The notes under the pieces: generated by a model | The model's database searches: none | What the model was told of the DNA's origin: nothing | What the model saw: only the letters and a program-made list of their open reading frames with translations | Shown here: positions 21,627 to 40,645 of the stretch, piece by piece | Layout of the letters: each line of letters begins with the position of its first letter | How positions within the stretch are numbered: the first letter of the stretch is position 1 | Assembly (NCBI RefSeq): GCF_964188315.1 | Contig: NC_135655.1 | Coordinates: forward strand, 65,844,001-65,908,000 | DNA: 64,000 bases | DNA from: Podarcis muralis | Taxonomy: Eukaryota | Direction: 5' to 3' | Translations under genes and position numbers: made by a program

Positions 21627-22700
21627 ACTTTTTCTAGTAAGGAAAGGGATGGAGAACTACACTGGAAAGTGTGGGATAATAATGGCTTAGCATGGCATTG
21701 GAAAACCTCTCCACAAATGAATCCTCATTACACAACAGGCATTGTTTATTGTCCCCACAAACTTCATGGCAAGCAAATCAAGATGAATCTGAAGTAAACA
21801 GGTCATCAGGAAGCAACCAAAATGATTGATGTGGCTATGTCCCAGATCAGTGTCACCAGTGCTTAGTAGATGATTACTACCCCCCCCCCCACACACACAC
21901 ATACACACACCTTCATTTCCATTTGACTTTCACCGAATGTTGGCTAAGATACGTTTGATAAGACCAACAACACTTTTAATTACATTAGCAAAGCTGGTGA
22001 TCATTTCGCAAGTTTACTTTTGTGAAGCGTTTTAAAAACGTTAGAATTTATAATGGAATCAAAGCCCACTCGAAGGAATGTTTCCTGACACAAGCTAAAG
22101 AGGGCATTTGAATTTCAGCTTTGTTGTCTATGTGAGGAAATTCTGGTGTAGCTTCCAACGTGTACAGATCATCAAATGGGAGACTGCAATTATATTGCCT
22201 CTTGTGGGAGTCCTCTAGTTGCTGTTGCCAATCAGTTTAACACACTGTGGGCACTCTGTATGAAAGTACTGTTGCCATCAGCTGTGGGACCCATGTGACA
22301 AGGGTGTTCTGTGCTGAATAGTCCTATAAATCTGAATATATTGTATTGAGGCCCATTGTAGTGCTATGTTGTTTTACTGGGATTGTATTGTTTTAATTAC
22401 CGTATTTAACTTCTTAATGTTTTAATGGGACTGTTTTATTGTGTACTTATCGGTATTTCTATTTTAATGTCTCTGTGACAGGTTTTTATACTTCTCTATA
22501 AAAGTATAACACTTGGAAGCCTATTTGGACTTTAAGTGCTATATGAACTAAAACAAAAACTCTTATAAAACATAGTGCCATGTATTTGAAGCGTTTCCTG
22601 CTTACAGAGCATCCTTATTTGGATTTTCAGTTCATTGCATTTCAGAGTCTCAAGGTAGAAAACAATGTATTGTTGAATGGCAACTAAATTTAAAAACATC

Positions 22701-23525
22701 TGTCAGAGCTGCCCTAGGTCCCAGCTCACAAAGGACCAACGCCAGTTCGTTGTTATATAAAACAGTCTTTATTGAAGCTCAGTTTCTTTTTCACAGCCGC
22801 GGCGCGCAGCTCTACGTCTCAAACTCTAGACCGCCGAAGCTCCGTCTGAATCTCCTCCCCCCAGACACCAGTTTAAGACTCTAGCCTTGCTCCACCTCTT
22901 CCTCTGCTCTCTTCTCCTCTGGGCCCGCCTGTCCGCTGGGGTCTCGCCTCTCCTAGACTCTTCTGACGCTGAGTCTCCTGAGTCCTCCCCCTCCCTCCGG
23001 CGGGCTTTAGGACCTGGTTCCCAATCCGGGTTTCCTGCTGTGCCGCGCGCCTGTACATTCGAACTTGGCGCGCGCGCCCAGCCGGCCACCTTCCTCCTGA
23101 CCGTTACACTGCTCCTGTCACTGCTTCCCCCTTTGGGGAGGCTAGCTGCACCTGACTCTCCCTCTGTTCCCTCACTCTGCGATGGAGGCGTGGCCACCCT
23201 TGACTCATCCTCTCTCCCTGCTGGAGGAGAAGCTGGCCCTGATACATGTGACTCTTCCCCCTCACTACGCTCTGGTGGAGTAGCTGGTCCTGCTCTCCCG
23301 CTGCTGCTTTGGGAGTCCCCGCTGGCCCCTTGCTTCTGGTGTGCCCCCCCTGGGACCCCCCTTGCCCTGGAAATCGTCACCCCCCTCTGGGAATCTTCTG
23401 ATTCACTGGAGAGACTCATGGAATCTCTCGGGCCACTTTCGTACTCCCCTACGCTGCCCTCAGATTCTTCCCCTTCGCTCTCCATTTCCTCTCTCCCCTG
23501 TGCCTCTGCTCCTGAGCCCCTGACA
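22701..23525 (-). mobile_element. Solo LTR (825 bp), Gypsy/ERV-type
   Basis: TGTCAG...CTGACA termini and perfect 5-bp TSD acatc (22696-22700, 23526-23530). Minus-strand AATAAA at 22768-22773. CpG-rich. Confidence 0.9.
22826..23485 (-). CDS. 219-aa ORF inside the solo LTR, acidic S/E/G-rich with a basic C-terminal segment; function unknown
   Basis: ATG in gaaATGg context and TAG at 22826-22828. Fully within the LTR in sense orientation. No recognised domain. Confidence 0.5.
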   Translation of the reverse strand: MESEGEESEGSVGEYESGPRDSMSLSSESEDSQRGVTISRARGVPGGAHQKQGASGDSQSSSGRAGPATPPERSEGEESHVSGPASPPAGREDESRVATPPSQSEGTEGESGAASLPKGGSSDRSSVTVRRKVAGWARAPSSNVQARGTAGNPDWEPGPKARRREGEDSGDSASEESRRGETPADRRAQRRREQRKRWSKARVLNWCLGGGDSDGASAV

Positions 23526-23683
23526 ACATCATAAATAGAAAATGCCCATCGAAAGTTGGACTTCTCATTTGCTGTCGTGATGACATTGTTTGTTGTTAAT
23601 TATTATTATTATTATCACCCATGTTGTGGCATAAGAAAAAAAGAGAGATCTAAATTGCAAGAAACATACACCCTAAAGTCTGA

Positions 23684-40310: not shown

Positions 40311-40645
40311 NNNNNNNNNNNNNNNNNNNNNNNNNNNNNNNNNNNNNNNNNNNNNNNNNNNNNNNNNNNNNNNNNNNNNNNNNNNNNNNNNNNNNNNNNN
40401 NNNNNNNNNNNNNNNNNNNNNNNNNNNNNNNNNNNNNNNNNNNNNNNNNNNNNNNNNNNNNNNNNNNNNNNNNNNNNNNNNNNNNNNNNNNNNNNNNNNN
40501 NNNNNNNNNNNNNNNNNNNNNNNNNNNNNNNNNNNNNNNNNNNNNNNNNNNNNNNNNNNNNNNNNNNNNNNNNNNNNNNNNNNNNNNNNNNNNNNNNNNN
40601 NNNNNNNNNNNNNNNNNNNNNNNNNNNNNNNNNNNNNNNNNNNNN
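40311..40645. other. Assembly gap (335 N) in intron 7
   Basis: Run of N. No exon is missing, because exons 7 and 8 join in frame. Confidence 0.99.

Follow-up and report, generated by a model that had tools for sequence, protein, structure and literature searches.

A stretch of 64,000 nucleotides of Podarcis muralis DNA (the window) contains an 825-bp long terminal repeat (LTR) whose U3 region is open over nearly its whole length, which raises the question of what protein, if any, this frame belongs to. The coding sequences of HIV nef and MMTV sag overlap the U3 of the 3' LTR, and the earlier note had proposed a stand-alone accessory gene of that kind. Our analysis does not favor this proposal. 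With a probability of about 0.8, the element is a solo LTR of an env-less Gypsy chromovirus in whose full-length relatives pol crosses the polypurine tract and the whole of U3, and the frame is the end of a long integrase tail with predicted disorder, for which nuclear import or target tethering is the likeliest role.

The basic description of the element in the earlier note was correct. The LTR lies on the minus strand, has the termini TGTCAG...CTGACA, and is flanked on both sides by a perfect 5-bp duplication, ACATC. Its CpGs are preserved, with an observed/expected ratio of 0.55 compared to 0.17-0.23 in the 5-kb flanks. The frame from 23485 to 22826 comprises 219 codons plus TAG, as had been reported, and belongs to a stop-to-stop frame of 257 codons that is open past the 5' edge of the LTR. 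The stop, which had been placed about 50 nt before AATAAA, was measured at 52 nt from it, and this distance is the same in every subfamily aligned. The opposite strand is open as well. The features of the locus are as follows.

22701..23525, minus strand: solo LTR of 825 bp, a member of subfamily A, from a Ty3/Gypsy chromovirus as judged by the structure of the parent
23526..23530: upstream copy of the 5-bp target-site duplication, ACATC on the plus strand
22696..22700: downstream copy of the 5-bp target-site duplication, ACATC on the plus strand
22826..23524, minus strand: C-terminal tail of Pol/integrase encoded in U3, beginning at the second base of the LTR and comprising 232 codons and a TAG; acidic, S/E/G-rich, and predicted disordered
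23483..23485, minus strand: the ATG taken as a start in the earlier note, codon 14 of the tail, a Met only in A/B-related clusters
22865..22930, minus strand: basic block and W-S/T-x4-L-x-W-C motif at the end of the tail, the only part with predicted helices and a candidate import or tethering motif
22872..22876, minus strand: TTAAA, a TATA-like putative promoter element 29 nt 5' of the presumed transcription start, overlapping the Leu-Asn codons of the motif
22837..22847, minus strand: 11-nt self-primer, complementary to the sequence directly after the 5' LTR in full-length copies, putative U3/R border, 19 nt before the stop
22768..22773, minus strand: AATAAA polyadenylation signal
22830..23534, plus strand: antisense open frame, sharing its third codon positions with the tail and read as its shadow, interrupted in subfamilies D, E, and F

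A genome search with the LTR returned 4293 first-look candidates, and the 40 that were scored showed 97-100% identity. Perfect 5-bp duplications were present at 27 of the 30 LTR matches fetched, identifying these as solo LTRs, and the 207 distinct LTRs of the fetched loci fell into 16 clusters. The copy in the window, having neither an upstream frame nor an upstream promoter, is most likely an untranslated passenger. The target duplications of 90 solo insertions were non-random: T was rare at position 1 (5/90), a pyrimidine was favored at positions 2 and 5, and A or T at position 3. Elsewhere in the window, positions 40311-40645 are a run of N.

The first lead to the parent element was one genome match whose 3' LTR was preceded by a polypurine tract. 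Pfam searches on the frames of parent copies revealed gag (Retrotrans_gag, Ty3_capsid, and CCHC), protease, reverse transcriptase (RT), RNase H, integrase, and a Tf2-like SH3 domain, in this order. Both gag and pol have the same sense as the LTR frame, and the copies are flanked by two LTRs and 5-bp target duplications. The best PDB match was Ty3 Gag-Pol (E 3e-135). There is no room for env, as the internal region of 5.0 kb is filled by gag and pol up to the tract. A putative chromodomain was matched by Pfam Chromo at E 3e-4 and 21.1 bits, under the cut-off of 25.1; a scan of the whole frame at E 0.01 did not report it, and its region is conserved (dN/dS 0.16-0.21). In 28 of 33 cases, the 5' LTR is followed by a 10-12 nt complement of the self-primer. 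The self-primer occurs in three sequence versions, each matching its own LTR, and the pairing is the closing stem of the predicted fold in 3 of 3 subfamilies. This complementarity would put the RNA start at window position 22847, with TTAAA upstream of it, and the frame would then fill U3 and end early in R. The heptamer GGGAAAC was found within the gag/pol overlap in all six copies examined. Judged by its features, the parent is an env-less, self-priming Ty3/Gypsy element of the Tf1/sushi type and probably a chromovirus. We also observed that full-length copies crowd contig ends: 72 of the 89 listed 3' junctions (nine contigs of known length) lie at most 2 Mb from an end, where 3.8% is expected, whereas 17 of 69 LTR matches lie that close to one. 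Contig C20 is also rich in junctions. The crowding may reflect survival in low-recombination regions or targeting.

To place the U3 frame in its parent, we analyzed the junctions between pol and the 3' LTR. Subfamily C is the youngest, with only 0-4 base differences between the two LTRs of a copy. Of its six full-length copies, four carry a single pol frame of 1542 codons ending at the same stop, and the integrase is in frame with U3 at 9 of 11 junctions. Continuity with pol explains why the frame in the window stays open right up to the 5' edge of the LTR, as the earlier note had remarked. A motif adjoining the G runs matched 203 junctions; among the first 30, which were examined, 18 were in frame, while 9 and 3 were shifted into the two other frames. 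Genome-wide, there were 28 exact in-frame junctions of the A/B type, 12 of which represent one duplicated insertion and none of which belongs to subfamily A. A genome query with an out-of-frame copy under-sampled in-frame junctions, recovering 4 of these 28. The nearest sister subfamily (825-bp LTR, 91-94% identity to the window copy) was in frame at 4 of 16 junctions, in an analysis that for this subfamily and A covered 29 of 30 loci.

Protein databases hold the same chain. Three Podarcis muralis proteins in UniRef, named 'Gypsy retrotransposon integrase-like protein 1', begin with integrase, cross the tract, and continue into the tail. Among 32 database proteins listed, 12 join the integrase core and the whole tail in one chain, although these are Podarcis gene models, which might bridge frameshifts. 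A Logan protein of the D/F type is likewise fused. In full-length relatives, the ORF extends into the internal region as part of pol. The polypurine tract is often frameshifted, almost always through lost bases, whereas similar G runs inside the LTR are stable, and either tract-specific instability or a local assembly bias could account for this. As the G runs of 64 A LTRs seldom vary in length, a general homopolymer artefact is not favored, although the tract itself may be affected by one.

Subfamilies A and D provide evidence against fusion. None of 12 3' junctions of subfamily A (8 independent insertions), all of them frameshifted in the tract, and none of 4 junctions of subfamily D was in frame, in samples biased toward young, similar copies. 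One A copy has an intact gag and a pol of 1382 codons that ends 25 codons into the LTR in another frame. Given the 4 of 16 junctions in frame in the sister subfamily, the chance of finding 0 of 8 in A is about 0.1. One A insertion is present in four duplicates, among which the junction has three different states, so that such shifts arise after insertion or in assembly. The shifted junctions of A can thus be explained by post-insertion decay or assembly error; alternatively, fusion may have been lost in this subfamily. The derived changes of the A lineage, counting fixed ones only, are 3 synonymous and 6 non-synonymous.

The LTRs of subfamily A differ in structure as well. Near window positions 23150-23200, the A LTR is 48 nt longer than that of B and holds a C/E-type and a B/D-type segment in tandem and in frame, and three LTRs (L242, L244, and L248) look like A/B mosaics. 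These tandem segments and mosaics suggest template switching between subfamilies. At another locus (L032:3032-3807), a subfamily-B solo LTR is nested in opposite orientation in the pol of a subfamily-A element, with several more LTRs of the family within 10 kb.

The open U3 of subfamilies A and D bears on a separate nef/sag-like protein. Such a protein would start at the Met of the tract, or in A/B at the ATG of the earlier note, would be made from a subgenomic RNA or by re-initiation, and may coexist with the fusion while being the sole product in A and D. Although all junctions found in these two subfamilies are out of frame, 48 of 64 insertions of A and 25 of 26 LTRs of D keep an open U3. 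The tract ATG is in frame with U3 at 26 of the 30 junctions of one listing and is present in all subfamilies examined, and A and B hold the extra ATG in good context. However, the role of the tract as plus-strand primer is enough to conserve it without any protein; most junctions of young copies are fused in frame; the frameshifts are scattered over the G runs of the tract, as decay predicts; and the sampling bias of A and D stated above applies here. The strong ATG is real in the window copy but is not conserved, with Met at this position in 6 of 16 LTR clusters and Leu, Thr, Ile, or Val in the other 10. Selection on U3 also equals that on the adjoining integrase tail, with a dN/dS of 0.22 in U3 and 0.29-0.31 in the pre-tract tail at similar dS, compared to 0.04-0.07 in RT, RNase H, and the integrase core.

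RNA reads were compared with a subfamily-A element, with 6-12% of each run scanned, and 84-407 reads aligned per run. At this low depth, at which a subgenomic RNA could escape notice, no splice joint into U3 was found. On balance, we regard a separate protein as unlikely. Between 64% and 84% of the aligned reads continue into unlike flanks, indicating that they derive from other LTR copies within host transcripts. Most often, the reads seem to stem from a single solo LTR elsewhere, in antisense if the library is stranded as usual. In two runs, a solo LTR with an internal break (L185), not that of the window, dominates the reads and is read through at both ends; its reads probably come from within a host transcript. 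A sequencing-run search gave no RNA run among the matches listed.

To determine whether U3 is selected as protein, we compared seven subfamily representatives, all natural copies, by Nei-Gojobori counting. The results showed a dN/dS of 0.21-0.37 in 20 of the 21 pairs, which are not independent of each other, and 0.55 in the remaining one, with all bootstrap intervals below 1, whereas the other sense frames gave values mostly near or above 1. Differences are about twice as frequent at third codon positions as at either of the other two. In a frame-blind DNA alignment, 6 of 6 gap blocks within the frame are multiples of three, whereas the gaps after the stop are 1-2 nt. Across 11 subfamily representatives, 55 of the 73 invariant residues use more than one codon. 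Nei-Gojobori counting underestimates dN/dS even where selection is absent: private changes gave about 0.72 in A, with 0.40-0.55 for B, C, and D, so the true constraint on U3 is probably nearer 0.3-0.4. Private changes in subfamily A were 36 synonymous, 77 non-synonymous, and 4 stops, and the contrasts between shared and private changes were not significant in any subfamily (p 0.12-0.72). These comparisons support the earlier note in that a squamate-type LTR retroelement left a U3 selected at the level of protein, and on this sequence evidence the frame is real coding sequence under purifying selection.

The frame might instead be kept open for the sake of the RNA, since a stop near the poly(A) site would avoid long-3'-UTR decay; the tail would then be largely inert and its motifs would be promoter and self-primer DNA. 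The constant distance between stop and AATAAA is consistent with this, as are the many copies without a fusion and the lack of a fold in the AlphaFold model. In addition, the TATA-like box and the self-primer lie in the stretch of the last 40 codons, whose dS is lower (0.55-0.67), so part of the conservation of these codons is at the DNA level. But openness alone removes stops and frameshifts and would not keep dN at a quarter of dS, and amino-acid conservation with synonymous variation extends along the whole of U3, the dN/dS of both halves being 0.20-0.25. We consider this explanation very unlikely. That the frame is a by-product of a T-poor, purine-rich composition, or that the antisense frame is the real gene, is highly improbable: T makes up only 12% of U3, and A, B, and C have open frames on both strands, but a stop-free run of at least 232 codons arose in just 13 (sense strand) to 36 (either strand) of 3000 dinucleotide shuffles. 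Moreover, none of the seven subfamilies compared interrupts the sense frame, and indels preserve it, whereas D, E, and F interrupt the antisense frame with stops, and dN/dS is higher in the antisense than in the sense frame for 20 of 21 pairs. The caution that long ORFs can arise by chance holds for length taken by itself, because shuffles do reach such lengths; length is modest evidence, and it is the comparison of subfamilies that shows coding.

With the frame taken as the end of the integrase, we examined the tail itself. It is about 209-232 residues long, S/E/G-rich, and predicted to be disordered apart from short helices at the basic block and the end motif (W-S/T-x4-L-x-W-C or W-x6-L-x-W-C). 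The AlphaFold model of the tail has a mean pLDDT of 51, with helices only at residues 184-193 and 200-207. Pfam gave no match on the sense and antisense frames, and ESM Atlas, where recognition was low, gave no usable hit. A profile of the last 100 residues, compared with 1.84 billion representatives, gave 3 hits, all of them close relatives, and no wider distribution appeared in this set. The end motif was also considered as the first helix of a SAM or Myb domain, and this was rejected because only 12 more residues follow before the end of the protein. The C-terminal half of Ty1 integrase, which is disordered, and the LTR-encoded CR motif of CRM elements are the analogies that make import or tethering the likeliest role, and we tentatively propose that the tail acts in nuclear import or chromatin tethering through short motifs. 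A bolder reading, which we find doubtful, is that the entire U3 is an integrase targeting module, a convergent and much longer counterpart of the CR motif that steers elements to chromosome ends or retains them there, and that the G runs and the tract Met let some subfamilies make a free protein, an intermediate toward a nef/sag-like gene.

Taken together, these features suggest the following course of events. Genomic RNA would start at the self-primer of the 5' LTR, as its complementarity implies, and Gag-Pol would be produced by a likely -1 frameshift at GGGAAAC. Translation would pass through the integrase core, the SH3 domain, the chromodomain, and a pre-tract tail of about 135 residues into the 209-232 residues supplied by the 3' LTR, and would presumably end 52 nt short of the poly(A) signal. 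During reverse transcription, U3 would be copied into both LTRs, so that each LTR, and each solo LTR formed by LTR-LTR recombination, carries the frame. In such genomes, thousands of solo LTRs with an intact-looking frame of about 200 codons are a trap for gene finders, which call the frame an orphan gene. The fused chain is already present in UniRef under an automatic name and without a description. About 680 nt of LTR thus appear to be promoter region and selected coding sequence at once, in a young, recently active clade of vertebrate retrotransposons, and the short conserved C-terminal motif can be named as a candidate for nuclear import or target-site choice.

Compared with known systems, the Podarcis frame differs from nef and sag, each of which is a gene of its own, with its own RNA and start codon, in a retrovirus that carries env; it is fused to pol, its start codon is not conserved, and its parent is without env. 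In organization, the element resembles the Tf1/sushi group, for which a self-primer, an overlap of gag and pol that holds a -1 slippery heptamer, and no env are described in sushi-ichi and Tf1 (bioRxiv 10.1101/2022.12.06.519325). The Podarcis element shares the order gag-PR-RT-RNase H-integrase, the SH3 domain and a putative chromodomain after the core, the self-primer, a candidate -1 heptamer, the CCHC of Gag, and the lack of env. Unlike Tf1/sushi elements, its Pol runs about 350-370 residues beyond the chromodomain and occupies all of U3, and this U3 is G/A-rich, unlike the T-rich U3 of the fish-dominated Sushi LTR model (PMC3601003). No description of pol running into the 3' LTR was found for vertebrate Tf1/sushi elements or Podarcis in the literature searched, which held few subscription journals and lay outside Repbase and Dfam.

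Such an arrangement is already known in plant chromoviruses. In CRM group A and in the beet Reina-clade element Bingo, pol reads past the polypurine tract and terminates within the 3' LTR (PMC3059260, PMC3605345), and the LTR-encoded C-terminus of CRM integrase holds the CR motif, a putative targeting motif (PMC3059260). The similarity of the tail to CRM or Bingo is one of arrangement, since Pfam and profile searches found none in sequence; of the CRM traits, neither the CR motif nor the tRNA-Met primer site was found, and the Podarcis element has a self-primer and a tail without a Pfam match. A functional analogy is offered by Ty1, whose integrase has a large, disordered C-terminal half (PMC8487063) and reportedly a short C-terminal segment that tethers it to a host complex, Pol III (PMC10050235); Ty1 is of the copia type and its tail lies outside the LTR, so the likeness to the Podarcis tail is functional only. 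Like CRM group A and Bingo, the Podarcis element ends pol inside the 3' LTR and encodes there the C-terminus of integrase, but those plant clades are tRNA-primed and it is self-primed. In CRM, the CR motif replaces the chromodomain, whereas the Podarcis element retains a putative chromodomain before the tract and gains a further 209-232 residues from the LTR.
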